Assembly (NCBI RefSeq): GCF_036588685.1
Contig: NC_086382.1
Span: 59,396,001 to 59,460,000 of the forward strand
Length of the DNA: 64,000 nt
Direction of reading: 5' to 3'
Source: Mytilus trossulus
Taxonomy: Eukaryota
The position numbers and the translations under genes were made by a program. Below, in pieces: positions 1 to 23,339 of the stretch. Numbering within the stretch: position 1 is the first letter of the stretch; each line of letters begins with the position of its first letter. Under the pieces are notes generated by a model. The model saw nothing but the letters and a program-made list of their open reading frames with translations. It was not told where the DNA came from and made no database searches.

Positions 1-2341
1 CAAAATAAATTGTGAAGCACTTAACTTAACGTGTAATACTACCAAATCATGGTATGTCACATCCGGTTGTATACGAACAAAAGGTCTAAAAATATTCCCT
101 TCAATTTGACAGTTGTAGAAAATTAACGCTGCATTTCAATGCACTTAGATTTTTCTGAGTCATACACATTAATGTTGCGTGTCTGAAAGCATCATTCCTT
201 ATTGATTTGATGGTCTTATAAAATATTTTGGAAAGTTACGGTTACATAGTTACCAAAGCAGGTAACCAGTAAATAACAGTGTTAAAATTGGGTTGTTAAC
301 TTCCGGTGATGGTTACTTTCTTATATGCAATGAAATGTAGTGTGCAATTTTCACTGTAGCACTGGGAAGGATTATACTTTATACATGCAAAGTATTTCTT
401 TGGTTGAAATAAAGGTAAATACTGTGCAATTTTTTTAAAAAGTGCCAATTTAACAAAGACTAATATGGGAAAATCAATGTTGGTATTACACCTAAAGGAA
501 AGGTACTTATTGCAAACCCATATCTTAATTCTGAACCATCAAATGTATTATTAGTTTCTTTTTTCGGTCACATAATTTAGAGTTTAGTGTTACGTATAAA
601 AATAATACTCTATATTATCATGACTATCACGACTCAATTAGCAGTATCAAGATTTCATAAAATTTTTTGACTTCACAGCCTATTTACAACAACTTGAAAA
701 TTCCCGCCCTGCATAGAAGTAAGTAATGTATTCATATGGTGCTCTTTTTCAAAGAAAATACGTGATTAAGTGTTTTGTGCATTTGCTTAATTTTAAACGG
801 ATTTCAACATCCATTAGAGACATGTCTTTGTCAAGAGTTTATACACACAAAGTTTCTAAACATTTTATATCTATATTTAGTCTAACGTCCATACATATAG
901 ATTTTTTCTACAGATGATGACATAAATTATGTTAATTTACATAATCTTATTTCCCAGATTAGTCCATCTTTTTGTAACAGCAAACGCAGAAAGAATATAT
1001 GCGCATAAACTTAAAAACTGTTGACACACAAATTTGTCTCGTATGTCGGCATACAATTCAGAAAAAGACCATCGGATAGACACCATTGCTTATCAGTTAA
1101 GGTGCTTGACCATGATTGCGTAAAAATGGTCAAAGTACACAGTAATGTAACTCTATAGACAATACCGTTATTTATTGTAAGACGTTCGTATCAATCTAAA
1201 TTAGGTAAAAAAAATATCAAAAAAATAGTCGATGAAGCATAAACTAATGAACAGATATTCAAAATTGCCGTCTAACTGTAATCACACTTTGTATTTAATA
1301 TCAATGTTCTTTCACAAGTAGTTGTAACGAAACTAATTTAAGCTATTGCTGACGCCATTGTGGTCATGATCAGTGTCGTCATCGGAAAAGCAATCCTTTT
1401 ATCGCGCTTTCCGTGACTTTCGACAAAAGTGAGATTACATAAGCACCTTTAGTCATTTTAAGCATTAACTCAAAACTGGTTGATTTATGTTCAAATGTGT
1501 CCTCTTTAATTAATAGTATAAACATGTTACCTCTGTGTGATTTCTTACAGGAAATTGCAAGGACATTACTTCGTTTAATAGTATAGAAATATCAATGTCT
1601 TTTTTCTTTTTCATCTTCGCAACTGAAAAAAGAATCATATCTTAAAATTACAACTAAATGATTTATATTACGATTACAATATAAGTGTAGTACAAAGTAA
1701 AATCTAAAAAGAAACTGAACTCAAAGGAAAATTCAATCGGAAAGTCCATAATCACATGGTAAAATCAAATGACAAAACATATCAAAAACAAATGGTCAAG
1801 AACTGTCATAGTCCTGACTTGGTACAGGCATTTTCAAATGTAAAAAAATGGTGGATTAAACCTGGTTTTATAGCGCTAACCCTCTCACTTTGTTGACATG
1901 CTCTTCAAATTCCATAATATTTACATAGATGCGTGAACTAAACAGACATGATAAATAATATAGTCAAAATATGGGAACATCAGTCATCATCGTGTAACAA
2001 TTTTAAAAGGAACAATTGAACAGAACACATAAACATCTTTCTACAAACACATTCATTGATTCGCGTGTCTGACGTCAGAAAATTATATATGTCACATGTT
2101 TTTATTGTTCAATGTTTATACAAACAATTTTAAAATTTCACATGGACAATGTTAGCAGACAGCGTTAAAAAATCAAAAGTATGTAAGACTTAATTTTAGA
2201 AATAGACCGAGATTTTAAATTATCCAAAAGTTAAATAGAATTTATAAGAATCAACAAATTTTATTATTTTTCATTCGACCACGTTATTCAATAATTTTGA
2301 CGTTTATAGTGTAACGTATTTTCTAATGCATAATAGAAATA

Positions 2342-2576
2342 AACTCATCATAGACACCAGGGCTAAATTTTGTATATACGCAAGACGCGCGTTTCGTCTT
2401 CAAAAGACTCATCAGTGACGCTCGAATCCAAAAAAGTTTAAAAAGGCCAAAAAAAGTACGAAGTTGAAGAGCATTGAGGACCAAAATTCATAAAAGATTG
2501 GCCAAATACAGCTAAGGTAATCTATGCCTGAGGTAGAAAAGCCTTAGTATTTCAAAAAATTCAAAACTTAGTGAAC
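2342..2576 (-). mobile_element. 5'-truncated hammerhead-bearing retroelement copy inserted in an older repeat
   Basis: Absent from the homologous host copy at ~19200. Flanked by direct repeat AGAAATA (2335-2341, 2577-2583). Homologous to 8914-9174, 10315-10480 and 16335-16630. Confidence 0.8.
2377..2422 (-). ncRNA. Type-I hammerhead ribozyme in a dispersed repeat copy
   Basis: Minus strand CGUCA-CUGAUGA-GUCUU-UUG-AAGAC-GAAA-CGCGCG-UC|UUGCG. Intact core, 5-bp stem II, palindromic stem III, one mismatch in stem I. Confidence 0.8.
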
Positions 2577-3663
2577 AGAAATATATCGTAATGACATATG
2601 ATATTTTAATAGAACAATATCATACTGACGGAAGTACAGCGTCACGTTATAAGAACCAAAGAAACACAAAAAGTCGCATATACAAAACACACCACTAAAA
2701 AATGAAAGATAATACAAAAACACATTGACGGGATATTTAAGTACTGAACCACGTTAAACGGACATCACATAAAAACAACTCAACAGTAAAAGTAATATTA
2801 ATTATTTAATAATAGAACAAAGACAAATGAAAGAACAATATAACACGTTGTTAAGATGATAAACAACATCAGTACGCATAATCTATGCACCAAGACCATC
2901 ATGTATTATTAGTACAGTATAGCTTCCGATTAAATTTCTGGCTTCAGTTGATACATTTTAATCATAGGAGATTCCCGCCCATGTCAAGTGGCCTGATATC
3001 AAATATGTCCATGTTTTAATAGCGACTTTTTGTCATTCATTTTTTGCAAATATAATTACAGAAAATTATTACAAACCAGTTAGTGTTTGCGTGGTAAGAG
3101 AAATCATCTTATAATAGCATCATATTACTTTGCTTTGAAATATACCAGCTAGTTTCGTGGTTTTATTTTTGTTTAAATTAATATTTCAGATAATTTTTTT
3201 CATTTCATTACTTTATTATCAGTCGGGCAGTTGGATTCTATCACGAAAAGGAATATTCTTTTTGTTTGAAATATTAAGTGTAATATCCCATCTAGGGACA
3301 TTATGTTTTTATGTTTGTGCATTCATTGGTTTGTTCATTCATCCGTCCGTCCGTTCTTTTGTCCATTTGTCCCGCTTTAGCAGTAAATGTTGTTGGTCAA
3401 GGGAGTTTTTGATGAAGTTGAAGTTCGATCAACTTGAAACTTAGTACGTATAGTAAGATCTTTTAAATTTTAATGCCAATTTCACCGTTCACTAAAAATA
3501 GTAAAAGATAGTGTGAGTTGGGTATTTATGAACTATGGAAAAATTCTTGTTCATGTTATCATCCTTATAATTATTTCTATCCATATTGGTTTTATGATCA
3601 ACATTATTTCTATTGTGTTTTTATTATGAAGTTGGCACAGATAGTAACGTGTTAAAGTTCTAC

Positions 3664-3958
3664 CTAAAAAGTGTGTGCTTCCGTAGGCTAAAACCGTATA
3701 ATGTTCTTCCATTCCATTTTCCTTTTTCAATCCATAGATCTCAAGGCAATATTCTGTTCCAGAAACAAAGATCATTGGTAAATCGTGGTCATTTACTGTG
3801 ACATCAGCTATCATTGTTACGCCATTAAGTGATATTATATCGGGTCGTAAAAATAGAAGTAAACAATTCATTCTTTCTGGTCCATGAATCTCGAAATGCA
3901 TTTTTCTATTCCCACCATCAATTTGTCCATGAAAGAGTATTCCTTGACTGTTTGCCAT
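3664..3958 (-). CDS. PHYHIP-like paralogue A, N-terminal coding exon (rest of gene probably beyond the left window edge)
   Basis: MANSQGILFHGQIDG...HDLPMIFVSGTEYCLEIYGLKK...YGSTHFL is clearly homologous to the 17019-17322 exon (GQID, LPMxFxSG, YCLEIYGL, YG). It ends at the same phase-1 donor position (TTA G|GTAGA). No C-terminal exon was seen in 1-3663. Confidence 0.7.
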
Positions 3959-6900
3959 ACCGCTTTGCTATCTTTAACAATCTGCTTACATGTAGAATCG
4001 ATCTCCAACTAACCCAAGGTCACATCATAGGTTTTAGGTATAACAACTAATGAGGTTGACTAACTATCCTGCAATAGAATAATGTATAAGCAAAGTTTTA
4101 AGTTTCATTTTTAGAAATACTCAAAACACAGTTTTCGGGATACGCGGACCAGTTAAAATGTTTCACTGAATAATCGAACTGTTCACGTAAGGAAGTACAT
4201 GAGTATAAACATGATAGATATTTTTATTACTTTTAGAATATGATAAAAATGATAGGTCCAGAAGCTTGTTTCCAAGTTACTTTCTGTGAAAATATAACAC
4301 GTTTAGTATATTTTGTACAAAGAAATGGAATCTTATTACGAACACAAGGTAAACTAAGTTGCATAATTAGGAATGAAATTTAAGAGAATTTGACCTACCG
4401 GCGTGGATCTGCTTCCCTGTCCGACGCGACTGAGATAACTCCCAGTTATAGGCGATGTTTATGTTCCTCAGTCTTAGTGGGGTTTTTGTGTTTGTGTTAT
4501 GTGTACTTATGTTTTTTTTTCTTTTTGAAGCCATGGCATTGTCAGTTTGTTTTTCGATTTATGAGTTGACCTTCCCTTTGATAGTTTTTGCCTCTCTCTT
4601 TCAAAACTGCTTTTGGAATAACAAGAGAAAAAAATTAGGTTACAAAACACTATTTCCTACTACAACATTAAACAGAAAAATTGTGTAAGTGTTTTTAATC
4701 CGTTATCGTTCTAGTGAGCAACGAAATATAAATATATTAGATTCATCGTTGTAGATTGAAATAACACTTTCGAATAATATGTTTATATTTGTAGGGAAAT
4801 AAGTCTGTGCTACTGATTTAAATAGATACCGAAAAGATTAGAACAAGAGGAATTATCACATTCACCTCATATTGTCCGAGTGTGGTTGCTAATAACAATC
4901 CTCATTTTTCCTTGAAACCTGAACAAATGTTTGTTTTGCGTGATTTATCGGTAGTTAAGAAAGTTAAATCCACGTTCATAAATTTTGAAAGGTAGATTTC
5001 GTTCGATAAACAACTTCCTCCTGAATTGTTGAAATATACCTTAACATTAACCATCATACCTTCGTGAATATTAGGTAAATGTTTTCTAATACAAGGGTAT
5101 ACTATTGTTAACAAATGTACTATCAGTATCTGTACGTTTTATCACAAAAAAGTGATATCGAGGGTTATCATGCTTCATTGATTTGATCAAGTGAGAATTG
5201 ACCTCTTCTTTTAATACCTAATTATATAATATATGGATATGAATGGACCCTCGTATACTTCTTGTAATTCATTCTTTCGGTCAACGTTGTCGATTTGATA
5301 ACATGCATGCAGAACTATGACACTTAATAAAAGACACACAAAGTAATTAAAAAAAACACTCAACCTAGGGTTATTATATAGTATGTAAACATTTGATAAA
5401 CTTCATTCAATAAAGATTTATAATCTACACAAAAGTGTGCTATGCAATTGATTTGAAAGAGTACTTTATCATTGTTGATTAGTGATTGAAATATTACATA
5501 ATTGTATCGTTTTGGTGAATATTGACTATTCTTTTCTAGTCCATAGAACAGAAATTGTCAAAAACAAATTATCTCACAAGATTTTAGAGGTAAAAGAATC
5601 GTTTAACTAAGGCAAATACAAGGTACATTGTAAAATCACAAAAATACTGAATACTGAATACTAATAATTGCCATTGAGCATGAAAGGATTACAAACTAAA
5701 TAATCATTTACCCATGATAAAATGTAAAAATATAATATGACATCATAACATATTTCAGTCTGCTGGACCCATGTTAACCAGCAACAAAGTAGACAGTTAG
5801 CTCTTTGGTAATAATTGTGATCAGAACAGGTAATTTCATTATTGAAATTTGTTGCTATCACATTTTTAAAGAGGTGTACAATTTTGAAACATACATCCCT
5901 CATTTAAAGCTCTGAGTACTTGTCAGGTTTTGGCTACATATCCTTTTTAACTGAGCTCTTCAAATATGTGTTTTCAAGTATTGTAGCCTGGAGTATTATT
6001 GACATTAAATGAAGTGTCAAAACGCGGATCTGTTGCTGTTTAAAAGGTACCGTTAATGTGATACCGATCATTCGGTCGATACATCTTCTGGTGGACTGTT
6101 AGTCCTCCATGATATCACGAGACCAGTTGCTAAATCTCTTGTTATTACGTGAAAATACGCGGATACATTTTGATTGAAATTTGCTGTTTTCGAAACATTT
6201 CGGAAATAATTATAAACTAAGGGATATATATCTTCATCATGCAAAGCGCTGTCTCTTGTTTGAATTTGAATACAGCTTAGGGGTATTCTGGTTTGATCAA
6301 TTGTCCAACGTTTGTATACGTTTTTGTTTTTCAAATATTGTTTTCTCGATCTATCTGCAGAAAACGTTCGAAATGCGCATCATAACAACACAATCTAACA
6401 TTTAAAACGATTGATATGAGGCTCTTTTCATCTATTATACAAGGCCTATATACACACAAAAATTATCCTTCCAATATTCAAATGATTGAGGAGTAATTAT
6501 CTGTCAGGTGTGTAGAGCTGAGTGATTTTTTAACAATTATCAAATAGAAACTAACAAGGAAGTTTTTATAAGTTGATATTTGTGCTAAATTACAAGTATG
6601 ATATAATAAAATAGGGTGTAAAATTGATCTTAAGATGAGCATGTTTGAGTTTTCTAACCAGCTTCCTATAAGGGAAGAGCAAGTGATTATCTTTTTTTAC
6701 AATTACCTTGAAAAGCGACGGTTAATGAAAAATCCGAATGAAATACAAAATTTTCTTCCGCATGTATCAATGAACAGGAACAGCAAACTGAAATAGTCAT
6801 GCGCATAAAAAAATCCTTATATACATATGTATTTGCAAAAAATATTATGTGAGTTACGAATTACATTATTTGACTACAGGATTGAATCAATACTATAATC

Positions 6901-8913
6901 AATGTTTTGTCTTATCGCTGATTTCTAATGTGGTTTAATGTGTAAACTGACGTGTTCATGTCATATACATTCAGTAAATATAATCAAACTAAGGTTATAT
7001 TACATAACAAACATGAGATACCACGGAGAAACTCAAGGATAGTAACTTGAGAAGAAACTGACAATTTTATGGCTGAAAAATGTTTGTAAGGTTTACATAT
7101 GTATCATGAGAAAAAAAATGAAAATCTGAGACTGTTTGCAAATGGTAACAGTATAAAACGAAGTCAATCTATCAGAAAAATACAAAAAAATAAAATTCTT
7201 GCTTTAGACATTTTCTCTTAATTGTTAAAAAGAGTCTGCCAAAACTCTTTGATGGTTTGACAGAGTACCCGCGAAAATTAGTTGGTTTACAGTGATTGTT
7301 GTGAAACTTTAATCACATGCTGTGTCTGTTTGTTACCTGCAGAACACTAAGTCCACTTGTCAATGAAAAGCAGCAAATTGAAAATAAATTATTTTTTTTA
7401 ATTTTGCTCTGGATACTATCTTTTTGGTCATAAACAAGCGTATAACCTAATTTCATAAAATTCAATGTAGGTTTGACAAAATAAGTGTTGTCAAACTTTT
7501 ACCTGAAACTTAATCTGATTGGTAACTGTAAAATGGTTAAGTAGATCTATCAGTAAAAAATAATCGATGTGTCTCGCTTTTGCGAAATGAATAATCAAAC
7601 TCGACAACAAAAGACAATATTTTTTTCACTATGCTTGTATCTGTAGTATCTGTAGTCGGTTCAATGATTTTAATAAACGTAAAAATTGTTTAACTGGTAC
7701 AGTATTAAGTAAGGAATTTCACTAACACAAGTTTATCAAAACGTATACTCATTCCTCGATAAAAATAAAGATTTAGTTAAGGAGTATGGCTACACGTCTC
7801 ACTATAACCAACGGTATATTACTGGGTCTACCAAGTACTTATCGAAACCTTTTTCTAAAGTATTAGCATCAATTTATCAACAATCAAAGCCCGGCCTTAA
7901 ATGTTTTAGAAACTGGCTGTTATAGAGGTGGCTTGAATCAGATGTGATTATTGAAACATTCCAAAGATCTTTTAGAGTACATACAATCTCAGACTCTTTC
8001 ATCTTGAAATAGTATTAAAACATTTGATTGTTCTACACTGTACACAAATGTTTACCATTTCAATCTAAAAGACAAATTGAAAGAGTTGGTCCCGCTTTAT
8101 TTCATCAAAAAGAATGGCCAACGTAGATACAAGTTTTTGTCTTAGGGAGGTACATCTTACTTTGTCAAAAACACAACAGAGTCAAACAAAAGATTCTCTA
8201 AAACTGACATTATCTAGATGCTAACTTTCTTGATTGTCAAAATATTCATTACGTTTTGGGGGCGTGTTTTTCAACCAATTATTGGTATTCCCATGGGAAC
8301 TAATTATGCCCGTCTTCTTGTCGACTTGTTGCTTTATTCTTATAAGGCTGACTCCATACAGGCACTTCTTATGAAGAAGGAAAAGAAGTTAGCAATATCG
8401 TTTAACTTTACTTTCCGCTATATAGATGATGTTTTCTCATTAAATGATTCAAAATTTGGTGACTATGTTGAACACATGTTTACCATCGAACTAGAGATAA
8501 AGGATACAACAGCTACAAATAAATCCTAGTACCGGTTGAAAAAAAATGTTTACGACAAAAGAGATGATTGCAGGTTCCCAATTGAGAACTTTCCATTTCT
8601 ATTAGCATAATTCCAGCAGCGCCTGCATACGGAACATATATCTCCCAATTAAAACGATATTCCCGGGCTTGTATTTCCATGATCATTTTCATGATTTCCT
8701 TGATTGAGGGTTTTAGTTTAAACATATTTTATTTGTTAAAGTACAAATTGGATAAGACACAAGTCAAACAGATGCTATCGCATATGTTCCTTTGATTGAG
8801 GGTTGCTGCTCACAAGGAAACTATTGAACCAAGAGTTCGAAATGGTTGAGTTAAATTCATCCCTTCGTAAATGTTACGGACGACATCACGAGTTGGTTGG
8901 CCGTTATGGAATA

Positions 8914-9174
8914 AACTCATTATTGATACCAGGATAACATTTTGTATTTACGCCAGACAAGCGTTTCGTCTACCAAAGACTCATCAGTGACGCTCGAATC
9001 CAAAAAAAGAGCACTGAGTTAGAAAAGCGCTTTTGTGTCATTTTGGTCTTTTGTGGATAGTTGTCTCATTGGCAATCATACCACATCTTCTTTTTTATAT
9101 TTAGTATTAAAAATTCAAAAGATTTGTTATCAGTTAACTTATAAATAAGACCATATCAATGATAATTTATGTTA
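8914..9174 (-). mobile_element. Hammerhead-bearing retroelement copy inserted into the PLE-like RT relic
   Basis: Interrupts the RT reading frame (RYGI|SVSQM). GAATA is duplicated at 8909-8913 and 9175-9179. It carries a further short 3'-end insertion at ~9030-9100. Confidence 0.7.
8949..8994 (-). ncRNA. Type-I hammerhead ribozyme in a dispersed repeat copy
   Basis: Minus strand CGUCA-CUGAUGA-GUCU-UUGGU-AGAC-GAAA-CGCUUG-UC|UGGCG. Core and stems I and II intact; stem III palindrome mutated. Confidence 0.75.
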
Positions 9175-12100
9175 GAATATCCGTTTCACAGATGCTATCG
9201 CATATGTTCCTTATACCGTAAGTACAATCCCCTCCCTTTAACAAACACGACCCACCGACTAAGACTATTTACCGGGTTTGTTATAATATGAGCAACACAA
9301 CGGGTGCCACATGTAGAGCAGGACCTGCATACCCTTCCAGAGCACCTGGTGGTATTCATAATGGTCTTTAGTTTTCTATGTTATGTCTTGTGTACTATTA
9401 TTTGTCTGTTTGTCTTTTTTATTATTCATGCGTTGTCAGGTTTTTTTTTATCTATCTTTCGCCCCTCTTTTTTAATGCAAACTTGTACAAAATCAGGCTG
9501 GCTTTTGTTAGTCTTGTATGGTTTTTTTTAAATTTTACTTCATGTGAATGTTTCGGATTTTAGTGTGATTGAACTAGTTTGCATTTGTGTTAAAAGCTCA
9601 GGTGAAGTGCGCCTCTAGGTTCATGATTTTCTCGCTGAATTGAAGACCCATTGATGGGCTTAGGCTGTTTTTGCGCTTTGGTCGGATTGTTGTCTCTTTG
9701 ACACATTTCCCGTTTCACTTGTAATTTTATTATGACTTTTTATTAAGTATACATGTTACTGTATTTCAATTAGACATTAATACGGAACTTATTTATAGAG
9801 TGTTTTAGATATTGTTCACATCGGTTAATAGGAGTCATAAAATAATGATGTGAATCTTATATTATATTTATTAGTTTATATGCATATAATAAAGCTAACT
9901 TAATTTGAACTGTTGTGCATGAATTATGGTTCAGATAAAACACGTTTATATAAACAGAAATCAAACCAAACAAACTGCAACTATTCTTATACAATTTATT
10001 ACGTCTGTTTAAGACATTCATAACATATTTTCATCGTGTTATATAATGGGTTGGTCCATTAAAAAAGCACTGTTAATGACATCCCTTTTCTAATGTCCCT
10101 GTAATGGAATAATTTCTAGTGGGATGTCACATTCCAACGCAAAGATAATTTTTAAGTTCTTGTTCCTTTAGACAAGGAATTTCAATTATTCAGGTTGAGA
10201 ATTCCTAATGAAAAAAAATCCAAGAAAACGCTTCGAACGCATGAAATCCTCCGTAAAAAATACATATATCATAAAGGTCAACCTAAATCATTATGGTGTT
10301 TGTAAAACTGTCGAATAAACTCATCATGCATACAAAGATTCAAATGTGTGTCTACAAAAGACTCATCGGCAACGTTCAAATAAAAAAAAGATAGGAGGCC
10401 AAATTAAATAAGACTTGAAGATCATAGAGGATACAGAATTCGGAAATGTTTTGAAAAAAACCTGATAAGGTAATAAATCTTTATTTTTATTTGCAAAAAA
10501 TTTCTTACCATGTGTGTGACTTTGTAAGAATTAAGTCCCAGTAATTAAGATATTTCAATCCTATATTAGTGATTTTTCATAGATAAATAAAATCTTATAC
10601 ATAAGAAAGTAATGAATGAGGTTATTAAATTTTATGTTTTCTTTTTTGTGCTTTTTTCTTACATATTTGTTTTTATAGTGATTTAGATTATAACGCACTG
10701 TTTGTTTTGCTCATGTATCGTTGTCAATATAATGGAATTTGATTCGACTGTCATACATGTCTGAGGTTTTGTAGACGAAACGCGCGTCTGGCCTATATAC
10801 AAAATTTAGTCTAGTATCTATGATGAGTTTATTTAGCTAGCTATAAAATCAGGTTCAATCAACCATTTGCTTCAGGAATATGACATTTGTTATCCATTCG
10901 TTTGATATGTTTGAGCTTTTGATTTTGCCATTTGCTTAGGGACTTTTCTTTTTGAATCTTCCTCGGCGTTTAGTATTTTTGTGATTTTACTTTTTCAAAG
11001 TTAATCTATGATAAGGTTCATATTAATGATAATTCACATCAACATCGAAAGTATTAATTCTTTCATTGATGCATTGGCCTCTTGGTCAACAGTATAATGA
11101 CATGAACGATACCAGACTTTTAATTTGTACATCTGTATTATTGTTGTCTCCTTTTCGACAAACGCATCAACTCTGTTGTTGTAGTACTTCTTCTTCTCAT
11201 ACCATACAACCGTGTTCAGGTCAACCTTATTTTATATTGAAGCTGGCTCATGATATTTGGGATGAACGTGTTTCTAAAAACCTGTTCATGTCCGGAATAT
11301 AGTGATTCGGATCCCCATATCTAAACCAAATAGTACATTATATTCTGTCTCAATTTCTGTTACGAAACCTTTTTTTTTTTTAGTTTTTACAGACAAAATC
11401 TAGATAAGAATGAATGAGATGTTGTATGAATGCCAATGAGACAACTATCAACTAAAGTTCAAATAAGTGGATGTAAGAAATTAACCAAGAGAAACTTTAT
11501 AGTCTTAATTGACAAGAACCTTCATAGTACATAAACGATTTTTGTGCTGGGTTCACTCCTTGTCAACTTAATCAAAGCGACAGAAGTTTGCTGATGTTCA
11601 ACTCTCGTAAATCGATAAGTAAAGAAAAAATCTATGTAACAATTAAAGACTGAGAATTGCACTTGAACCTGTAAAATCACAGATCAGATACCTACATTAT
11701 ACTGATATTAAAATTTAAAGACTACAAAAACAGTCGATAGTGAGTTGAAACACCAGCATGTCATAAAGGTCAATCGATTCGTGAATTTAACAGTAAAACT
11801 TATATAGTGTTGACATACGTCGTGTTTTCGAAATAATGTTATTGCTTGGGCCGTTTCTGTGTGTGTTGCGTTTCGGTGTTGTGTCGTTGTTCTCCTCTTA
11901 TATTTAATGCGTTTCCCTCGGTTTTAGTTTGTCACCCCGATTTTGTTTTTTGTCCAAGGATTTATGAGTTTTGAACAGCGGTATACTACTGTTGCCTTTA
12001 TTTATTGGAGTTTTTTTAGTGTAAGGAGCACGCCTCTGTTAATGTTAGTCTGTGGACATGCATGAGCGTAACTATAAACTGAGATATAGAAACATATTGC

Positions 12101-12637
12101 AATGACACAGAACGTATGTTTCTGTTGTAAATGTGTAGTTGGCAGTTAGAAAGTTGCAATCAACATGTTTGTCATAAATTCTTTTTAGAAGTCGTTCATC
12201 TGCGTAAATATCGAGTAAATAAACAATATATGACTCAGACCCGCAGTTTGCAAGATGCATTTGTCTTAATTCTGATAATTCTTGAGAAAGTTCTCTTTGA
12301 AATATCCTTCGTATCAATACAAAAACATTATCTGCTGATAGATCATCTGTTGAAATATCATTCCACCAAACTCAACAAATATCATTTAAAGCAGTGAACA
12401 TTTTATCAATGATCTAAGAATCAATGTAAAACTGATTGTAACATCCACTAATTTTTTTCAAAAACTTTAAGAAAATACTGTAGTTAGGTTTTTATCAATA
12501 ACTCTTTAAGATACTTTTGTCGAAAACGGGAATAATGTGGCAGCTGAATATTACGAATTCCTTTGAGTCGGTGAGTTTATATTAAAAACTAGTTATCTTT
12601 AAGATAAAATTATTATAATTTATTACTTATAGGTTAT

Positions 12638-12953
12638 AAAAGAGGGACGAAAGATACCAAAGGGACAGTCAAACTCATAAATCTAAAACAAACTGACAAC
12701 GCCAAGGCTAAAAATGAAAAAGAAAAACAGAAAAACAATAGTACACACGACACAACATAAAAGAGGGGCGAAAGATACCAGAGGCACGGTAAAACTCATA
12801 GATTGAAAATAAACTGACAATGCCATGGCTAAAACAAAAAGACAAACAGACAAATAATAATAAAGAAGACCCAACAAAAAGAAAACTAAAGACTAAGCAT
12901 CACGAACCCTACAAAAAACTAGGGGTGATCTCAGATGCTCCGGAAGGGTAAGC
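12638..12953 (-). repeat. 3'-end fragment of the PLE-like family with a tandem ~120-bp duplicated terminus
   Basis: AAAAGAGGG(A/G)CGAAAGATACCA...ACAACAT occurs twice (12638, 12758). The reverse complement resembles 9310-9470 and 4395-4600. Confidence 0.6.
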
Positions 12954-13097
12954 AATATAAGATACAGTATAAGATTACGTGGGTCCTCGGTGCTTTTCAA
13001 CTTCATTCTTCAGACGACCTTTTACTTAATTTTTTCGTGTGTCATTGTCGGCGTCAGACGTTTGAAATAACAATTCTGGTATATTTTATGTTTTTTT

Positions 13098-16000
13098 TTA
13101 TAAATTGCATATTTTACAAAGACCATTTTTAGGAATTCCAGTGGGTCTACTTTCTCCTCTTCCAATTATTGGTACTCGTTCGAAATGTCCTTGTTGGTTT
13201 TCAATTATTCTTGAAATGTTCACTGCTTCTGTATAAAACACTTCAACACGAAGTCCATTGCTTAAATAAACTATAACTTCATAAAAATCTTCTTTTGTTT
13301 CACTGAGGTATATGAACGGATTATGTCTTATATCAAGTTTAAGAAGTCGTCTTTCACAAAATTGATCAGTTGGAGACCTTTTGGGAGTTAATACGACGGT
13401 CACATAATGAACCCGATAATGACAAAAAAAATCTGCAAAATATAAATTAAAGTTTGGTGTAAATAATGTAATGGCATCAATATGTAATCTTACTGGTCCA
13501 TATAATGATTCAGGCAAAGGCTTCATAGTTTGAAAATCTACAGCAGTACTAAAAAATAATCCATCTATATGTCCGTTTATAACAGAACACGGATCTCCAT
13601 TATGGTCCTTTGTATACGGCTTCATTATCCCAGAATGATATTCTCTTACGGATGCAAAGTACATTTCCGATTTATTTCTATACAGATAGTCAATAGTATG
13701 GAATTTCCCTGGTAAAGTTTTGATGAAACTTAACGTCCTGTTGTGAAGAGCTTGGTATTCTTGTTTCGTAAAATCTAGAAAGAAAACATTGAATCATGGC
13801 AATTTATACATTTTTTTTTTACAAAATATATTCAGGTAGTTATCTAAATACGGGCGGCTAGTTACTAAGAAACACCGAGAAAGCATATATTTATTATCAA
13901 TCAAGACTATATATACTAATATAAGAAAAAAATAAGTTACTCTTCAACAATTACAATGTTGGTGTCGTCCTTTCTCGTATCTATAGGGTAAAAGTATTAC
14001 TAGTATTACATTCAATCGGGTTTATGTTGGTCTTTTTTGTACCCAAGGTGAAAGATGTCAATTTTGGAGCGCCATGATTAGATATAAGGGTAGAGTATAA
14101 TTTGTTTTATGAATCTATGAATACCTACAGTGTGTATATCTACAATGTAAATTTTGAAACTCATTGAAATATGTTCTTGAGAATTATTCGAAAAGACCAT
14201 AAAATATTCATAAACTTGATGTGAAATGATTGTAGAATGGTTACCATAAGTGAGCTCCGTTCTAAGATTGGCATGATTCTATTTGACTTCAATTTCTCAA
14301 ACAGAATATACAGTTATAATAACGCACATAGCTTTTTTGTCCAGGTTTTTATTATAAAAATTTAGAAAATGTTAAGGGAGAATCAATAATACCGTTTGTC
14401 TTTGATGTAAATGACTTATCACAGCTATTTCTGAAACCAATCCTTTTTATAATTAAACATGGCAAAAATAATATAAAGATTTAAAGGATGTGTGTCATTT
14501 ATAGTAACTGGTACAACTGAAAAATATAAACTTACACGATTTAAATCTTAACTTTTCACTGTTTACTTCATTCGCAATAATTCGAACCACATCACTTTCA
14601 TATAAAACAGAGCCAATTATAGCTTTTATTTCACAATTCCTAGCTGCATGGAGTTCGAATGGTAGTCTGAATTTCAGTCGCTTGCCAGTATGTATAAAGA
14701 AACATATCTTTTCGCCATGCTGTTTAAAAATCAAAATCCACGTTTTATCTGACTGGTATTTCTGATTACTGTTGAAAGTATACCTAGAATTTGGCTTATG
14801 ATGTACACTAATTTGGAGATTATCCTACAACAAGAAAAATTCCATGTTTTAGTTTAAGGACTATAATCACTGAAAGAATGAAAGAATGAAAATTGCAAAA
14901 ATATGAAAAACAAGAAAATGTTTGTTCTTTCAAAAACTAGAACACTTACATATATATGTTTAGCTTATTTCGGCATACCATGATCATATGGTTTTTGTAA
15001 ACTCAAAGAATTATATTATCAAACCTTTTGGTAAAAAAAAATATTTTCATTTAAAGTGTTTCTGCACTGAAGTTCAAAAAGTTGTCGGAGGAAGATGTTA
15101 TTTTTTTCTCCTCAAAAAAACATTGCTTACATTTTTGGCAATATAAAACCAAATCGATTGACGAAAAAATTGCATTAATTTTCATATGTTTTTTTCTGTA
15201 TTATTCTTATAATAAGAATATGATCCTATCAATAGACGCTCGTTGTATAAATGCTGGTAAAACCGATATATCGTATTATAACAAACATATGTTACTTCAA
15301 ATAATTAAATGTCATATTTAGTTTCAAGAGAATTGCGGCTAGTTAAAAAAAATCGACACTTTTAATGTAGTTAGTCAATACAAAGATTGGAAAACTTAAT
15401 GTCTTTGATTCGTGCATCATTTATCGCTTTTTATTTATTGTTGGTTTGATCTGAATAGCTTTCCTTTCATTAAACTGCATTTCATTGCAATTGTTAAAAA
15501 GATAATAATGTTAGATAGTTTTTACCGTCCAGTGGAAAATAATGCATGCATATTTTAAGGTTAAATAAATATACTAGTATATGAAACCTACTTTGTACTA
15601 GAAGGACACGCAGTGCTACATTTTAATGTGGGTTTTTTTCACAAGATAACTGTCCATAAAAATATTTATGTCGTCCTAAATAGACTTATCTCAAACCAAA
15701 CAGTTTTGGTTCTTCCTCTTCTGTGTATTCTGAATACCTATGAAATAGGCAGAAAATGCTAATTTTTAGACTTGTTTTATCCTGCTCGTGATCGAAAAAA
15801 AGGACATGTCGAATTCGATGCCATAATACCACCGAGGAGGTTACTACTTTACTTCTTTCTGCGCTAGATAAATATGTGATATATTCACTATAGAGGCTAA
15901 TTGAAAAGTAGAAACAAATGTTAAATTTCCTATAACCAAATTTGAAAATCACTTCTAATTAAGGAATGTATCTCCCTAATTCAAAGCTCTAATTTCTAAC

Positions 16001-17322
16001 CTAGCTGTGGCTTTACTTATTGTCTTATACGCTTATCATTTTTTCTATTAGTTTTGGATTTATTAATATTTTGGCCTCGAACATCAGTGAAGATACATTT
16101 TTTTGACTAAATGCACATACGTTGATGATGTTACCTTTGAAGCGCAGTCTACTGGAAGTAATACACATTCTTGTGCAGACAACCTCATGTTGAGGTTTAG
16201 ATTTGATGCTGAGTGACCTTTCATTACTGAAAATAAAGCTGTTATTTAGACAATTGAATTCAAACCGTTTTGATAACTGATATGTTGATAAACTAATGTT
16301 TTGTCTACTACCAAATGTTTCAAAACATATTGTATATAGTTATCAAAGGTATCAGGATTATAATTTAATACGCCTGACGCGCATTTCGTCTACACAAGAC
16401 TCATCAGTGACGCTCAGATCAAAATAGTTATAAGGCCAAACAAGTAACAAGTTGAAAAGCATTAAGGACCAAAAATTCAAAAAAAGTTGTGCAAAATACG
16501 GCTAAGGTAATCTATATCTGGGATAAGAAAATCCTTAGGTTTTCGAAAAATTTAAAGTTTTGTCGATAGGAAATTTATGAATACGATATAATTGATACTC
16601 ATGTCAACACAGAAGTGCTGACTACTACTTATCTACTTCACCTTGAGTAATTGTCATTGAATCAAACTAATGGGCACTTTTAAGATTCTTTTAGTTAAAC
16701 CGAATAGTTAAAAGTTTGTATGTGGATTATGCAACACTTATCTTGCAGTTGTTGTTTTTTTCCCACTTGTTGAGTGATAGTGTTTGTCGTTGTAAGTTTC
16801 TGTGGATTTTTTCTTTTTTATTTGGTCTTTGAGTTTGGTATTGTTGTTATATGTTTTACTCATTATGAGAGTATTGTATTTTTTAATGTGTGGTTTCAAC
16901 ATCATATTCCTTAAAAAGAAGAACCATTTTCTTTTCAAGTTGATGTGATAAAGGCAAAAACAAAACCAACAACATTAAGAATTAAATAAAAATTAAATAA
17001 TCAATATTGATTTATTACCTTGAAAAACTTTTCTTCCATACGATTGACATTCATAAAACTCTCTATCTGATGCCATCTTTTTTCGCAAACCATAAATTTC
17101 TAGACAATAACTGCAACCAGAACCAGACAAAAAGTTCATTGGCAACTCATGTTCCTTTGTTGATATATCAGCAGTTAGTGATATGCCGTAGTGTGGTGCA
17201 TGTTCATATACAAGGAACAACATTAAGATATCTACATCTTGGTTTGGAATAATAACTTTGAAGCATATTTGTCCGCAAACGCTATCAATCTGTCCACAAA
17301 AAAATACTTCCAATGTGGACAT
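13098..17322 (-). CDS. PHYHIP-like (phytanoyl-CoA hydroxylase-interacting protein-like) paralogue B, 326 aa
   Basis: Exons 17322-17019 (ATG TCC ACA; donor CAA G|GTAAT) and 13774-13098 (acceptor TTTCTAG|AT) give 981 nt in frame. The C-terminal exon has PHYHIP C-domain motifs YRNK, MKPYxKDxNGDP, INGxIxGLFFS, PxxSxYG, NLYFADFFC, HYVTVV, VEVFYTE and terminal CKICN. Confidence 0.85.
16335..16630 (-). mobile_element. Hammerhead-bearing retroelement monomer
   Basis: Colinear homology with 2342-2576. Shares blocks with the 21926-22585 unit (AGTAGTCAG..TGACATG, CTAAGG, GAGCGT-hammerhead). Confidence 0.75.
16369..16414 (-). ncRNA. Type-I hammerhead ribozyme in a dispersed repeat copy (intron of PHYHIP-like B, sense strand)
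   Basis: Minus strand CGUCA-CUGAUGA-GUCU-UGUGU-AGAC-GAAA-UGCGCG-UC|AGGCG. Core intact; first stem I pair is an A-A mismatch. Confidence 0.7.
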
Positions 17323-18466: not shown

Positions 18467-18556
18467 TACAATAAGAAGCATCCAATTTTTTAAATTGCAG
18501 CCAATTATAATATGTAATATATATGATTTTTTCTATTTTATATAGTTTTTATATAA

Positions 18557-19340
18557 AAAGTAAAATCACAATAATAATGAACTCAGAGGAGAATCCAATC
18601 GGAAAATCCATAATCACATGGCAAAATCTAATGACAAAACACATAAAAAACGAATTGATAAGAACTGTCATATTCCTGACTTGGTACAGGTATTTTCAAA
18701 TGTAGAAAATGGCGGATTAAACCTGGTTTTAAAGCGCTAAACCTCTCACTTTGATGACAGTCTCATCCAATTCCGTTATATTTACAATGATGCATGAACT
18801 TAACAGACACCACATCTTCCTATATCTATAAAATAAATAAAATAGTCAAAATATGGGTACAGCAGTCATCATCGTGTAACAATTTTAAAAGGAACAATTT
18901 AACAGAACACAAAAAACATCTTACTACGAACGCATTCATTGATTCGCGTGTCTGGCGTCAGAAAATGTGAAACGTCACATAAATTTGTCGTTCAATGTAT
19001 ATACAATCAATTTACAAATTTCACATGGGCAATGGTAGCATACAGGGTTCAAAAATCAAAAGTATGTAAGAATTAATTTCAGAAATAGACCGAGATTTAA
19101 AATAGTCCAAAAGTTAGATAGAATTTATAATCATCCAAAAATAGTTCATTCCACTACGCGATTGAATACTTTTGAAGTTTGTGGTTTAACGTATTTTCTA
19201 ATTCATAATAAAAATATATCATGACATATAATAGAACTATATCATACTGACAAAGACACGTTATAAGAACCAAAGAAACACAAAAAGTTGCATATACAAA
19301 ATATACCAGCAAAAAATTGAAGATAATACAAACACATCGA
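18557..19340. repeat. Interspersed repeat, second copy (empty site for the 2342-2576 insertion)
   Basis: Colinear with 1693-2740 apart from the hammerhead-element insertion. Confidence 0.8.
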
Positions 19341-19936: not shown

Positions 19937-22154
19937 ATGTCAGGTATATGGCAGTAGTTCGTTTCTATATGTGTTGGCGTTTGTTTTGTTGCACTTCGGT
20001 TTTCCTGTTGTTCCTTTAAATTGTTTTCCTATTATATTTTCCCTCGGTTTTTGTGTGTAGGTTTTTTTTACTTAATTGATATATGTCTTTTGAACACTGT
20101 TATGCTACTATTGCCTTTATTATACAAAAAAATCTAATTCACTGAAAAAAAATAGAAAAAAAATTATTGATTTCAAAAAGTAAAATTTGAAACTGATAGA
20201 TCTTGACAATCTACAATATTCGTAACCATTGAAACTCGAACCTTCAACAATTCTTTGATTACTATTCATAATATAATGATGTATCAATAGGATTGTATGA
20301 ACGGATTTTTTGTTCTCAAGAGTCAATTGTTATGTTCAATCGACATCATAATTATGTTGAAGTTGTCGTAACCTTTTTATGGATAATTTTAATTGTCTGC
20401 TAGGCACAAATTAAAACAAGACATTCCACTAAAGTTAAGATATTTATATGAGACATATTGTAGTAAACATCTAAAGGTGTATTAGGTCTTTGTCCTTTTA
20501 AAATATGTCAGATTGCATGAACTGAATTAAAGCACTTAATAAACGTTGACACATTTCACTCAAATATGTAAAAACTGTAATATGACAGACTTATGTCATA
20601 TTAAACCTCACTCACGCTTTTGAATGATTTGTAAGACTAAGTTTGTTTTAGAATTTTAGGGGCAAAAACGTTTCCTTGTTATAAAATTACTTTTTTTAAT
20701 ATTCATGTAAAAGTGTTGAGTTAGATTTCCAAAATGAATTGTTATTTTCAGTATTTTAAAAACATGACAAAAGCTAAATGAATTCAACGAACAACTGTCG
20801 AAAACTCTTGTCACATTAAGCATGTTAAGGGAGGTGAAAAATACCAAATGGACATTAAATCTCAATCAAATAAAAACTAAACTGACCATGATATGACAAA
20901 ACAAAAAGCGAAACAGATCAAGAGACAAACAACAGTATACAAAACACAACATAGAAAGTCAAAGACTGAGTAAGACGAAACCCAAAAAAAACAGGGAGGA
21001 TTTCATTTACTTCCGATTGAACAGATCTTCCTGTCTTGCGTGCAAATATGTATGTAAGAATTTATTTCAATAAATTAGATTATGGAAGGAATATATTACT
21101 GATATTGTTTACTAAAGATTTTTTTTTTTAATTGAATCTAAGGCATTTCCAGCGCCTTGACATTGAACTTGAAAATCACGAGACGGCAACTTTGAAATAA
21201 ACGAGTCCATTGTAATACTTAAACTGGATATCAATTAAAACAAACAAATTTTACTCAAAAATTGTTACTTAAAGGATTTTAAGTAATTCTTAAAGCGATG
21301 TAATAAAATGTATCCCAAATGGTTTATGTGGATTTGTTGTTAGTCTTTTTTTTTCTCGAATTTAAATCTCTATCTTATCTGGTGAAATCGTGTTTCTGCT
21401 TCTGAATAGTTTATCTTGTCATGAAATTATTTTTTTTTGCTTCGTCTTATCAGTTTGACTATCCGCTTCTCCTCTCTCCCATTTTCAACCACGGCTACAT
21501 GTATGTGTACTGAAAAAAAGTGATATCACAAAAATACCAAACTCCAAAGAAAATTCAAAACGGAAAGTCAACAATCAAATAGCAAATTATCAAAGGTACC
21601 AGGATTATAATTTAATAAGTAACCCACAAGTTCAAACGCATCAAACGAATGGATAACAAACTGTCATATTCCTGACTTGAAAGGACAGCTGGATTGTTAT
21701 TTCAGCGATGAGTCCCTTGTTTGATCTAGGACGTGAAATATCCTCATTCAGTTGTTTCCACTCTACCATCGTTTTTGGATAGCCCTCATGTTAGGTTACT
21801 AGTACTTGTCTTGAGGTGGCACAATATAAAGATTTTATAACTTGAACTCTCAATTTTTAAAATGCTGTAACTTTCTAAAAAATGCTTGAACAAAAAGTGG
21901 TAGTTGTGGATAGCTAACTTATTATATCAGCTCAGTAGTCAGTATTTCGGTACTGACATGATTTAACAAACTTTACTAAAATTTGTCCGTTTATAAATTT
22001 ATAAATTACATATATTAAGAAACTAAGGTTTCAACTCCCTCAGGCAAAGTTGGCTTTAGATGAATTTGGCTATTTATTTTAGGTATTTTTGACATACAGC
22101 TCTTCAACGGTTTCGGTACTTATACATCTTCGGATTTCAAATGTTTGGCTTTGA

Positions 22155-22196
22155 GCGTTCCTGATGAAGGTAAATCTAGAAAAGCGCTTCGGACGC
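22155..22196 (+). ncRNA. Type-I hammerhead ribozyme (copy 1 of tandem)
   Basis: GCGUUC-CUGAUGA-AGGUAAAUCUA-GAAA-AGCGCU-UC|GGACGC. Stem I is GCGUUC/GGACGC, stem III is minimal and palindromic (AAGCGCUU), stem II is weak. Predicted cleavage after 22190. Confidence 0.75.
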
Positions 22197-22510
22197 AAGA
22201 AATTAATAACGTGTTGTTTTCAATATTTTACATCACTGGGTCAATACCTCTGCTGGTGGACTATCAGTCCCCGAGGGTATCATCAGCTCAGTAGTCAGTA
22301 TTTCGGTACTGACATGATTTAACAAACTTTACTAAATTTTGTCCGTTTATAAATTTATAAATTATTAAGAAACTAAGGTTTCAACTCCCTCAGGCAAAGT
22401 TGGCTTTAGATGAATTTGGCTATCTATTTTAGGTATTTTTGACATACAGCTCTTCAACGGTTTCGGTACTTACTAGTATACATCTTCGGATTTCAAATGT
22501 TTGGCTTTGA

Positions 22511-22552
22511 GCGTTCCTGATGAAGGTAAATCCAGAAAAGCGCTTCGGACGC
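22511..22552 (+). ncRNA. Type-I hammerhead ribozyme (copy 2 of tandem)
   Basis: GCGUUC-CUGAUGA-AGGUAAAUCCA-GAAA-AGCGCU-UC|GGACGC. Predicted cleavage after 22546. Confidence 0.78.
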
Positions 22553-23339
22553 AAGAAATTAATAACGTGTTGTTTTCAATATTTTATTACTCTTTCAAAT
22601 AAATGCAATGTTAGTATGATGCAACAATTATGTAACCAATTATAATGTTAACTGTGTCTAAAATATTTTTCACCAAATTTCCACTTTCAAATGAAATTAG
22701 CTTCTGTATAGGTATTCCTAGAGGATTGGTTTTATTATATGTTGTTCCTATGGCCATTATCTACTAAAGGGTGCCTCAGATTTGAGATAGAATGTATAGA
22801 ACAAATTTTACACCTAATTAAACATTATTTTCTTTTGGTTATGATGTTCACATTAATTAGAGATTTATGAGAGAATGAAATACCATAGGGACAATTTGAG
22901 ACACTCTTTTGAAGCCCATGGTGTGTTGATTAAGATTTCGTTAAAAAAAATGTATAGTTAAACAGATGAAAGAGCTAATGTCGTTCAAGTGAACTGACCG
23001 AGATTTTGCCATTAATTACATAATAATTGATTACACAATGATTGCATAATAAAAATATTGCATTCATTTAAAAGTTCAATCTTTTATCTATCTATATATA
23101 CCTCTTTTATTATTTTGATTGCATTCATAAGAAAGTTACAGCATTTTAAAGGTAAGTGATTGGAAGTAAAAAAATCTTTGTATTGTGCTACCTTAACTTG
23201 ATGTTTGTTTCTTGTGAGTATTAGATAATCTTTCAAGACCATAGATAAGGGTTTGTTTGAACTTGTTTGATTATTTAGTTGATAGAAGTGTTTCGGTTTC
23301 TGGTGAACATAAATAAAGCGTTAAATTTTAGACTCCAGT

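Follow-up and report, generated by a model that had tools for sequence, protein, structure and literature searches.

Non-LTR hammerhead retrozymes are known from Mytilus galloprovincialis, for which published work reported two ribozyme families in about 5,000 copies. In the portions of the main text of the corresponding papers available to us (PMC4918200; PMC7229834), neither the insertion ends nor the priming site is mapped, and the enzyme is left open. Which enzyme copies the circles of animal retrozymes, and how a circle without a 3′ end is primed, are open issues of the retrozyme papers. The published driver candidates are Penelope-like elements (PLEs) in general; canonical hammerheads occur in other PLE clades but not in Naiads, and the words "hairpin" and "stem-loop" are absent from the main text of the Naiad paper (PMC8557442). 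For Poseidon elements, priming was reported to proceed without need for homology to the nicked DNA (PMC11167929).

We analysed 64,000 nucleotides of the Mytilus trossulus genome (contig NC_086382.1, positions 59,396,001 to 59,460,000), hereafter called the window. Judged by sequence, the copies in it are 5′-truncated pieces of the known Mytilus hammerhead retrozyme, with a non-coding unit of about 355–375 nt. They split into subtypes A (ends at 2337, 8910, 10315 and 10834) and B (16336, 21587 and 63000), which are about 76% alike. The earlier note had introduced this group as a second, dispersed hammerhead subfamily. Subtype A matches the M. galloprovincialis retrozyme printed in 2016, tail and hairpin included: positions 2501–2552 agree with the published 375-nt sequence at 51 of 52 nt (text taken from the figure, compared by eye), and the hammerhead agrees with the printed monomer at 44 of 46 (by eye). 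The element was already known, and the "second subfamily" contributes little. No coding frame of 90 aa or more was found inside A, B or C copies, and the GC content of the region is 29–34%, below 50%. No LTR-like layout was seen in the copies.

A window search by nhmmer with a one-monomer query gave 10 matches at E < 0.001 (best E in the reversed-window control, 2.4). About ten relics had been counted before; the full inventory (Table 1) comprises 13 relics, about 2,950 bp or 4.6% of the window, those at 12903–13088, 10177–10248 and 34790–34890 having been missed. A high genomic density, as proposed earlier, is supported. Also confirmed are the 3′ halves given at about 10769–10834 and 62941–63000 (plus strand), the stub at about 21586–21617 and the decayed copy at about 10315–10480 (both minus). 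The decayed relatives at about 15955–16125 and 5895–6125 are also present, but they lie on the plus strand and are weak (scores 98–101 against shuffle maxima of 81.5–83). They seem to belong to an older third subfamily; the second of them forms a partial tandem that extends to about 6380. Aligned to the tandem unit, 15900–16200 scored 69.5, not above shuffles (maximum 78.5). An extension of the 2335 copy past its target site duplication (TSD) to about 2600 was rejected, since the empty site shows the aligned part to be AT-rich host DNA.

Table 1. Retrozyme relics, hammerheads, Naiad-derived DNA and hairpin in the window.
Feature	Position	Strand	Remarks
Subtype A copy, 5′-truncated	2335–2583	−	7-bp TSD 2335–2341 / 2577–2583; 3′ end 2337, 47 nt beyond cut
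Internally deleted subtype A copy carrying 60-bp foreign repeat	8909–9179	−	5-bp TSD 8909–8913 / 9175–9179; antisense inside Naiad RT relic; 3′ end 8910, 46 nt beyond cut
Decayed subtype A copy	10313–10474	−	3′ half of ribozyme deleted, usual 3′ end retained
Subtype A 3′ fragment	10767–10834	+	Begins in loop II; 3-bp TSD (TTT); nested in Naiad_Mgal-type 3′ end, identical orientation
Subtype B copy, 5′-truncated	16336–16626	−	3′ end 40 nt beyond cut (16376|16375)
Subtype B 31-bp stub	21587–21617	−	In Naiad_Mgal-type 3′ end, identical orientation; ends ~36 nt beyond cut
Subtype B 3′ fragment	62941–63000	+	Begins in loop II; 3′ end 40 nt beyond cut; mutation in core GAAA
Sister subfamily C, tandem, 1.9 units of 356 bp	21926–22586	+	Two hammerheads, cuts 22190|22191 and 22546|22547; 3′ end likewise 40 nt beyond cut; candidate 6-bp TSD
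Old third-subfamily relic, ~1.5 units	5843–6380	+	Decayed hairpin 6076–6118; apparent end at cut site (counter-example)
Weak old relic, nearest to 5843–6100	15922–16175	+	Score 101 vs shuffle maximum 83
Old relic beside Naiad-type 3′ end	12903–13088	+	E 2.5e-5
Decayed subfamily C hammerhead	10177–10248	+	
Decayed subfamily C middle part	34790–34890	+	
Type I hammerhead	2378–2421	−	Cut 2384|2383; one stem I mismatch (C.U)
Type I hammerhead	8950–8993	−	Cut 8956|8955; stems I, II and III all paired; loop III palindrome lost
Type I hammerhead	16370–16413	−	A.A at first stem I pair, beside cut
Decayed Naiad PLE (C-terminal part of RT, 3′ UTR)	7800–9470	+	Hosts 8909–9179 copy; tblastn E 3e-88 to P0059
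Internally deleted Naiad_Mgal-type repeat	1691–2722	−	Hosts 2335–2583 copy; carries Naiad_Mgal 3′ end
Hairpin common to 5′ start of Naiad elements	22241–22283	+	Only intact example in window; copies' 3′ ends map just upstream

Three single copies carry minus-strand hammerhead cores (2392–2415, 8964–8987 and 16384–16407), whose spans from stem I to stem I are given in Table 1. Complete cores had been placed at 2377–2422, 8949–8994 and 16369–16414; the core letters and, within 1 nt, the spans are confirmed, but only one of the three (8950–8993) pairs in all of stems I, II and III. The Rfam hammerhead score was 27.7 against a gathering cut-off of 34 bits, and no window match reached gathering; the hammerhead of an outside locus, L002, scored 33.3 bits (E 1.2e-5), slightly under the cut-off. 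It had also been argued that all three stems differ between the families yet still pair. This does not hold for stem II, in which the tandem type has A.A at 10.1–11.1 and two pairs, so that the change is not compensatory. Two double changes in hammerhead stems were found at the family level. Among 10 hammerheads (9 distinct), 1 of 10 pairs was altered on both sides, and 213 of 500 shuffles did equally well or better; the stem III pair, misaligned by MAFFT, was omitted from this count and read separately by stem inspection. Free folding of single hammerheads gave no ribozyme fold and was not better than shuffles in six sequences (z +0.9 to −1.4). Covariation of the ribozyme is weak and does not stand as statistical evidence of a selected fold, for which it had been cited.

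Subtype B occurs in tandem at L002 with a monomer of 355 nt. With the 356-bp unit of the window's tandem copy, this falls within the 150–450 bp tandem units of metazoan non-LTR retrozymes. Joints jumping back 344–352 nt, which correspond to tandem arrays, were seen in all four DNA runs; the contig counts of these runs (39,146–128,065 records) are not copy numbers. The "dispersed" type and the tandem copy of the window are colinear, agreeing in 242 of 370 columns, and the families differ by about 35%. A hammerhead pattern search returned four loci in metagenome contigs and none in prokaryote and viral contigs. Six RNA runs contain 4–7% of the sampled words, which we do not count as evidence of expression.

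As to the mode of insertion, TSDs with empty-site support measure 7 bp (AGAAATA; 2335 and 2577), 5 bp (GAATA; 8909 and 9175) and 3 bp. The empty homologue of the 2335–2583 insertion lies near 19212, in an empty sister repeat (18554–19336). The first two duplications had been recognised before and both stand; none was found for 16336–16626 and 62941–63000, that is, for two of the seven A/B copies. Apart from these lengths and the 6-bp candidate, TSDs are absent or unclear in the rest. In metazoan non-LTR retrozymes, TSDs exceed 4 bp where they occur. TSD and element end overlap by 3–5 nt. Terminal inverted repeats (TIRs) were absent from three of the four copies tested. The fixed 3′ ends, the variable 5′ ends, the short AT-rich TSDs with empty sites and the lack of TIRs in those three copies support spread by target-primed reverse transcription, as the earlier note had proposed. 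In the 8909–9179 copy, one 15-nt inverted match of 80% was observed near both ends.

The 3′ ends do not coincide with the ribozyme cut but sit 33–78 nt past it, immediately before a hairpin, a position that the earlier note had not recognised. For all seven A/B copies in the window and for the tandem copy, the 3′ end lies 36–47 nt beyond the cut or at the equivalent letters of the tail, and all five informative outside loci stop right before the hairpin (+40, +40, +45, +33 in L058 and +78 in L033). As the spacer varies from 33 to 78 nt, the 3′ end tracks the hairpin and not the distance from the ribozyme. The DNA runs agree: among 24 loose ends listed (of 2,386, with counts incomplete for two runs), none lies at the cut (L002 655), and the nine with long mixed flanks (median 181–255 nt, agreement 0.38–0.40) all fall at L002 612–614, the fixed-end site, in 4/4 runs. 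Of the five older relics none clearly has the fixed end: one apparently ends at the cut (6380), another aligns only to about +13, one may extend past the fixed end, one is roughly at it and one is uninformative. Because copies span the ribozyme cut, the copied template must have been a circle or an uncleaved multimer.

The hairpin has the same fold in 5/5 intact examples. Taken singly, hairpins have only a modest folding advantage over shuffles (z −1.4 to −3.0). In a set of six related sequences, 5 of 15 pairs were altered on both sides, a value reached by 4 of 500 shuffles, and slid controls gave 0–2. The same hairpin stands at the start of 16 of the 54 Naiad Penelope-like consensus elements, among them 9 of the 11 bivalve ones, Naiad_Mgal included. 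The supplement contains 11 exact occurrences of an 8-letter word from the hairpin's 3′ arm; 10 are at Naiad starts, one is inside a Chlamys ORF and none is in the Hydra file. A hairpin pattern search in prokaryote assemblies gave 120 loci, with retrozyme DNA in three (L014, L033 and L058) and a Naiad start in one (L100); these four probably stem from contaminating host DNA. For the remaining 116, neither nhmmer nor tblastn gave a match, and they were dropped as chance. In L100, a Naiad 3′ terminus stands directly before the hairpin and ORF start, at the same position as the retrozyme ends. L014 carries a 74-bp array of the hairpin.

Naiad-derived DNA is also the setting of several insertions. 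The match P0059 has N-terminal GIY-YIG, CxC and DKA and a C-terminal RT. Further Naiad_Mgal-type pieces lie at 10664–10995, 21515–21679 and 62765–62834, and the empty sister repeat includes an RT piece (19081–19161, tblastn E 0.001). Such DNA covers 6.8% of the window and holds four of the seven A/B copies (post hoc binomial P 6e-4); the nesting is weaker for 4 of 12 relics (P 0.007) or with the footprint doubled (P 0.07). BLAST of the window's retrozyme copies against its Naiad-derived tails gave no match, and within these window pieces derivation of the retrozyme from a Naiad 3′ end or pLTR was not borne out.

Based on the above results, we suggest that the retrozyme copies were probably pasted in by a Naiad protein. 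We predict that this protein binds the shared hairpin and initiates reverse transcription immediately upstream of it, at an internal site of a template that is probably circular. The shared 40-nt structure and the geometry of the ends make Naiad the likely driver. The process would start with tandem arrays being transcribed, self-cleaved and ligated to circles, as published for the family. Then, the Naiad protein would bind the hairpin, a step suggested by the shared, covarying structure. Its GIY-YIG nuclease would nick AT-rich DNA, and the nicked end may prime on a U-rich tract that precedes the conserved core of the hairpin by about 20 nt; this step has an observed basis in the fixed end, the TSDs and their 3–5 nt overlap with the element end. 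The enzyme would subsequently copy back across the ribozyme cut, which the copies do span. Early drop-off may leave scattered fragments, and more than one round may give short tandems such as that at 21926–22586. In the literature searched, no paper was found that links a fixed end and a Naiad hairpin to retrozyme copying.

Other explanations deserve consideration. The same family with the same fixed start might be copied by another PLE clade or a LINE, the hairpin being inherited from the 5′ end of Naiads and serving a different purpose, for instance as promoter, in translation or in RNA stability. Hammerheads do occur in pLTRs of non-Naiad PLEs, the vertebrate retrozymes resemble pLTRs where Neptune and Poseidon were the only clades found (bioRxiv 10.64898/2026.07.22.740005), and BLAST within the window showed no likeness between retrozyme and Naiad outside the hairpin. 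We nevertheless consider this unlikely: the end follows the hairpin across 33–78 nt of differing spacer, Naiad termini lie at the same place, and the 8-letter word falls at Naiad starts in 10 of 11 cases, with none in the Hydra file. Somewhat less probable still is Naiad machinery working on an uncleaved linear multimer transcript and not on a ligated circle. Cut-spanning copies fit either template, uncleaved RNA was the main substrate in the Poseidon assay (PMC11167929), and cleavage by the mussel ribozyme is slow, with a published rate of about 0.1 per min, but published Northern blots of mussel tissue show mostly circles, with linear forms at <5% to 25%.

We give very little credence to the separate dispersed subfamily of the earlier note, spreading only as SINE-like copies with a life cycle distinct from that of the tandem family. 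All seven A/B copies in the window are indeed single fragments, and the families differ by about 35%; but tandem arrays of subtype B exist in L002 and in the four DNA runs, the window's tandem copy shares the 3′ end and has a candidate TSD, and monomers are a normal retrozyme form. Least credible of all is spread at the DNA level, by a DNA transposon, a MITE or satellite pieces moved by recombination, to which the inverted match in the 8909–9179 copy and the possible growth of long arrays by unequal crossover might point. Against it stand the lack of TIRs in the other three copies tested, the variable TSD length, which does not fit a DNA transposon or MITE, the fixed 3′ and variable 5′ ends, the clean insertions shown by the empty sites and the one-sided pile of ends in the DNA runs.

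If the copying by Naiad is taken further, bivalve retrozymes may be circular RNA parasites that captured the Naiad RT-start hairpin, a 40-nt portable signal that would fix the choice of enzyme and the start on any RNA circle; we find this broader proposal evenly balanced. According to it, the telomerase-related Naiad enzyme would be directed to AT-rich DNA, in many cases the 3′ ends of Naiads themselves, the hammerhead would make the circle, and the hairpin could be amplified alone, as the array in L014 may illustrate. As to the main proposal, the fixed end beside a Naiad hairpin points to a single enzyme, RNA structure and start site, all of which can be tested with an assay format already available for a Poseidon element. 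If true, the hairpin would be the first described cis-acting RNA signal of Naiads.

Like the window elements, the M. galloprovincialis retrozyme (PMC4918200, Additional file 11; PMC7229834) has a type I hammerhead, a unit of 350–390 bp and a tandem form, whereas the window shows at least three subtypes and an older one. The vertebrate non-LTR retrozymes likewise combine monomers and tandems in one family, with PLEs proposed as origin and driver; they differ in pLTR homology with other clades, and the part of the survey available to us covers neither end mapping nor bivalves (bioRxiv 10.64898/2026.07.22.740005). Naiads (Naiad_Mgal, Naiad_Bpla and Naiad_Pmar; PMC8557442) have the same 5′ hairpin; in their partial tandems, 3′ termini lie immediately before this hairpin. 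They share 5′ truncation and AT-rich targets with the retrozyme copies. Unlike the retrozyme, in which no ORF or other Naiad likeness was seen, they code for GIY-YIG and RT and have no canonical hammerheads. In Poseidon PAc of Anolis (PMC11167929), reverse transcription begins at an internal stem-loop of the RNA, which follows the hammerhead on its downstream side, the nick is made in AT-rich DNA and, as is likely for the retrozyme, genomic ends mark the start sites. Poseidon PAc belongs to another PLE clade, is autonomous and uses two start sites 30–40 nt apart, about 85–92 nt past the cut, whereas the retrozyme has a single site and would be mobilised in trans.

The retrozyme family, made up of non-coding repeats that carry a hammerhead ribozyme, is already known. 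About 5,000 hammerheads of two families, lying within repeats of 350–390 bp, have been described in M. galloprovincialis (PMC7229834), and a 375-nt retrozyme monomer of this species is printed in Additional file 11 of PMC4918200. In vertebrates, retrozyme monomers are reported to be common, and an origin from Penelope-like elements (PLEs) is proposed (preprint 10.64898/2026.07.22.740005). The scattered copies of the window form two subtypes about 76% alike, which we named A (copies at 2337, 8910, 10315 and 10834) and B (16336, 21587 and 63000); C is our label for the sister subfamily found as a partial tandem at 21926–22586. Compared by eye with the printed monomer (text extracted from the file), subtype A agreed at 51 of 52 nt at 2501–2552 and at 44 of 46 nt across the hammerhead.

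The earlier note had set a dispersed subfamily apart from the tandem one. This boundary was not upheld, because subtype B is arranged in tandem 355-nt units at L002, a locus from outside the window, tandem joints stepping back 344–352 nt were found in the DNA runs compared, and one monomer of L002 aligns colinearly with the window tandem unit (242 of 370 columns). Gill and mollusc metagenomes were among the sequencing runs containing the repeat. Its agreement with published Mytilus elements makes a Mytilus mussel the most likely source of the DNA.

The three hammerhead cores noted earlier (2377–2422, 8949–8994 and 16369–16414) were confirmed at their stated positions. In textbook numbering, stem I of the scattered type is 6 bp long and stem II 4 bp; stem III has 2 bp and a palindromic loop, and the triplet is GUC. 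The description of these cores as complete applies to the core letters; all stems are paired only at 8950–8993, and each of the other two has one mismatch in stem I. Rfam matched the window hammerheads solely below the gathering score. Partial copies at 10767–10834, 62941–63000, 21587–21617 and 10313–10474 were confirmed by BLAST and nhmmer; the best E in the reversed-window control was 2.4. Two listed decayed relatives (5843–6380 and 15922–16175) could be kept as weakly matching relics on the + strand, older than the A/B copies. Three additional relics were found by nhmmer, giving 13 in all (4.6% of the window). Fragments 10767 and 62941 both start in hammerhead loop II, about 20 nt before the self-cleavage site (cut), possibly owing to stalling of the reverse transcriptase (RT) at stem II (n = 2).

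Compensatory changes in all three stems had been claimed as evidence for a selected fold. In stem I, three single changes and one double change separate the scattered type from the tandem one. Stem III differs by a double change, from C-G to A-U, in which the palindrome is retained, but the claim fails at stem II, where the tandem type has A.A at its base. Among nine distinct sequences, only 1 of 10 pairs changed on both sides, a count equalled by 213 of 500 shuffles. The same sequences did exceed the shuffles in paired cells (0 of 500 as high) and in covariation score (7 of 500), as kin sequences can. The hammerhead fold itself is not in doubt; the window alone supplies two covariation events, too few for a test. 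In the more distant relatives L033 and L058, stem I is fully paired and stem III palindromic, with letters differing from the window types; a short palindromic helix III has been described for type I hammerheads of animals (PMC4209133). In both subfamily C hammerheads (22161–22182 and 22517–22538), and likewise in L058:993–1014, stem II has 2 bp with A.A at its base; such a ribozyme may cleave slowly or require a dimer.

Two target-site duplications (TSDs) were borne out. The 7-bp TSD of the copy at 2335–2583 corresponds to a site present once in a sister repeat near 19212 (empty site). The copy at 8909–9179 has a 5-bp TSD and lies inside a decayed RT frame, the flanking peptides of which are contiguous in the intact homologue P0059. 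This protein has GIY-YIG at the N-terminus, CxC, DKA and RT at the C-terminus, which is the layout of the PLE clade Naiad (PMC8557442). Fragment 10767 shows a 3-bp TSD against both the empty sister in the window and the consensus element Naiad_Mgal. In these three copies the TSD overlaps the last 3–5 element letters, which would fit priming through short pairing. No TSD was detected at the 16336 or 63000 copies, and the stub at 21587–21617 gave an ambiguous picture. Terminal inverted repeats were absent from three of the four copies examined (the fourth had one 15-nt match, 80%). An exact 25-bp direct repeat (8768–8792 and 9188–9212) flanking the insertion within the Naiad relic resembles host sequence duplicated locally, not a TSD. 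Four of the seven A/B copies lie within Naiad-derived DNA, since the repeat hosting three of them is the Naiad_Mgal 3′ end. Such DNA makes up 6.8% of the window, so that this nesting has a post hoc P of 6e-4, or of 0.007 when counted as 4 of 12 relics.

The 3′ end of the retrozyme differs from the ribozyme cut. In all seven A/B copies, as in the tandem copy, the element stops 36–47 nt beyond the cut or, if the cut has been deleted, at the corresponding letters of the tail. This common end lies at a U-rich tract, which within an array leads into the next domain. Loci L001, L003 and L004 end at the same site, and L002 and L014 carry no informative end. When contigs of four DNA runs (four organism labels) were compared with one L002 monomer, loose ends with long mixed flanks occurred at 612–614 in every run (at least 821, 309, 488 and 465 records, among 24 of 2,386 rows listed). 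The other 15 of these 24 rows were short variant continuations, and none lay at the cut (L002 655). The older relics run counter to the fixed end: none of five displays it clearly, and 6069–6380 appears to end at the cut. Because copies span the cut site, the template was either a circle closed by ligation or a multimer left uncleaved, and synthesis started internally.

A hairpin is shared with Naiad. In the PMC8557442 supplement, exact-word search and inspection by eye placed its motif at the start of 16 of 54 Naiad consensus sequences, including 9 of 11 bivalve ones, among them Naiad_Mgal. A Naiad junction is present in L100, a locus of a mussel-symbiont assembly, where the 3′ terminus of the element itself is followed by the hairpin and next by the ORF start. 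Folding gave one structure for four retrozyme hairpins and that of L100, and 5 of 15 pairs changed on both sides in six related sequences (4 of 500 shuffles as high; slid controls 0–2). Two distant retrozymes, chosen by the hairpin motif, end right before the hairpin at +33 (L058) and +78 (L033, period 401) nt past the cut; thus, the element end tracks the hairpin, not the ribozyme.

Animal repeats (retrozymes and one Naiad start) were present in prokaryote genome assemblies (L058, L100, L014 and L033), likely as host contamination of symbiont genomes. L033:1140–1643 (−), in a bacterial MAG and probably host-derived, is a distant retrozyme of 401 nt that carries the common hairpin; its type I hammerhead has all stems paired and a GUA triplet. 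Rfam gave no match. L014:1405–3230 (+), probably host DNA in a mussel-symbiont assembly, has one hammerhead followed by a tandem array of more than 20 units of 74 bp, the hairpin domain alone, which suggests that amplification of the hairpin can proceed in the absence of the ribozyme.

The GC content across the window (27–35%) is that of AT-rich animal DNA. Neighbouring features are listed below.

Genes and other repeats of the window
Feature	Position	Strand	Remark
Coatomer beta exons	32556–56101	+	
PHYHIP-like single-exon frames	13098–13793, 36021–36809	−	two; one apparently within a coatomer intron
B-box/NHL-like frame	59258–60823	−	521 aa
Young LTR element	44783–47217		301-bp direct repeats, 98% identical, flanking gag-like ORF
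Gag-like ORF of LTR element	45704–46492	−	PNMA and Retrotrans_gag matches
Internally deleted Naiad derivative	18554–19336, 1691–2722		~780 bp; short RT piece fused to Naiad_Mgal 3′ end; five pieces in window
Palindrome, near-perfect	35666–35824		159 bp
Palindrome, weaker	56574–56732		160 bp
Intronic minisatellite	52795–53937		units 161 bp and 126/135 bp
Dispersed short repeat end	9035–9100, 11377–11463, 52598–52656, 56128–56171		one copy within 8909–9179 retrozyme

The simplest reading is a Naiad reaction acting in trans on retrozyme RNA. The Naiad protein would bind the common hairpin, priming would occur just upstream of it, and copying would run back through the ligation junction, presumably on a circular template. 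Early drop-off would leave fragments, and more than one circuit would give short tandems. Our observations bearing on this are the identity of the element and its tandem form, the TSDs, the fixed end, the covarying hairpin held in common with Naiad, and the Naiad end geometry; cleavage (~0.1 per min) and expression chiefly as circles come from published work on mussel repeats (PMC7229834). The retrozyme therefore appears to behave like a Naiad-driven element. Descent from a Naiad pseudo-LTR finds no sequence support outside the hairpin, because BLAST of window copies against window Naiad pieces found no likeness elsewhere.

Neither the fixed end nor the Naiad hairpin was found in the literature searched, most subscription papers and Repbase being outside that search, or by word search of the available text of 10.1101/721605 and PMC10886601; the words "hairpin" and "stem-loop" are absent from the PMC8557442 main text. 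According to the accessible part of PMC7761336, no conserved motif pointing to the driver of retrozymes is known. The element is thus a known one, and the apparently unpublished part is a testable mechanistic lead, namely the fixed end together with the Naiad hairpin.
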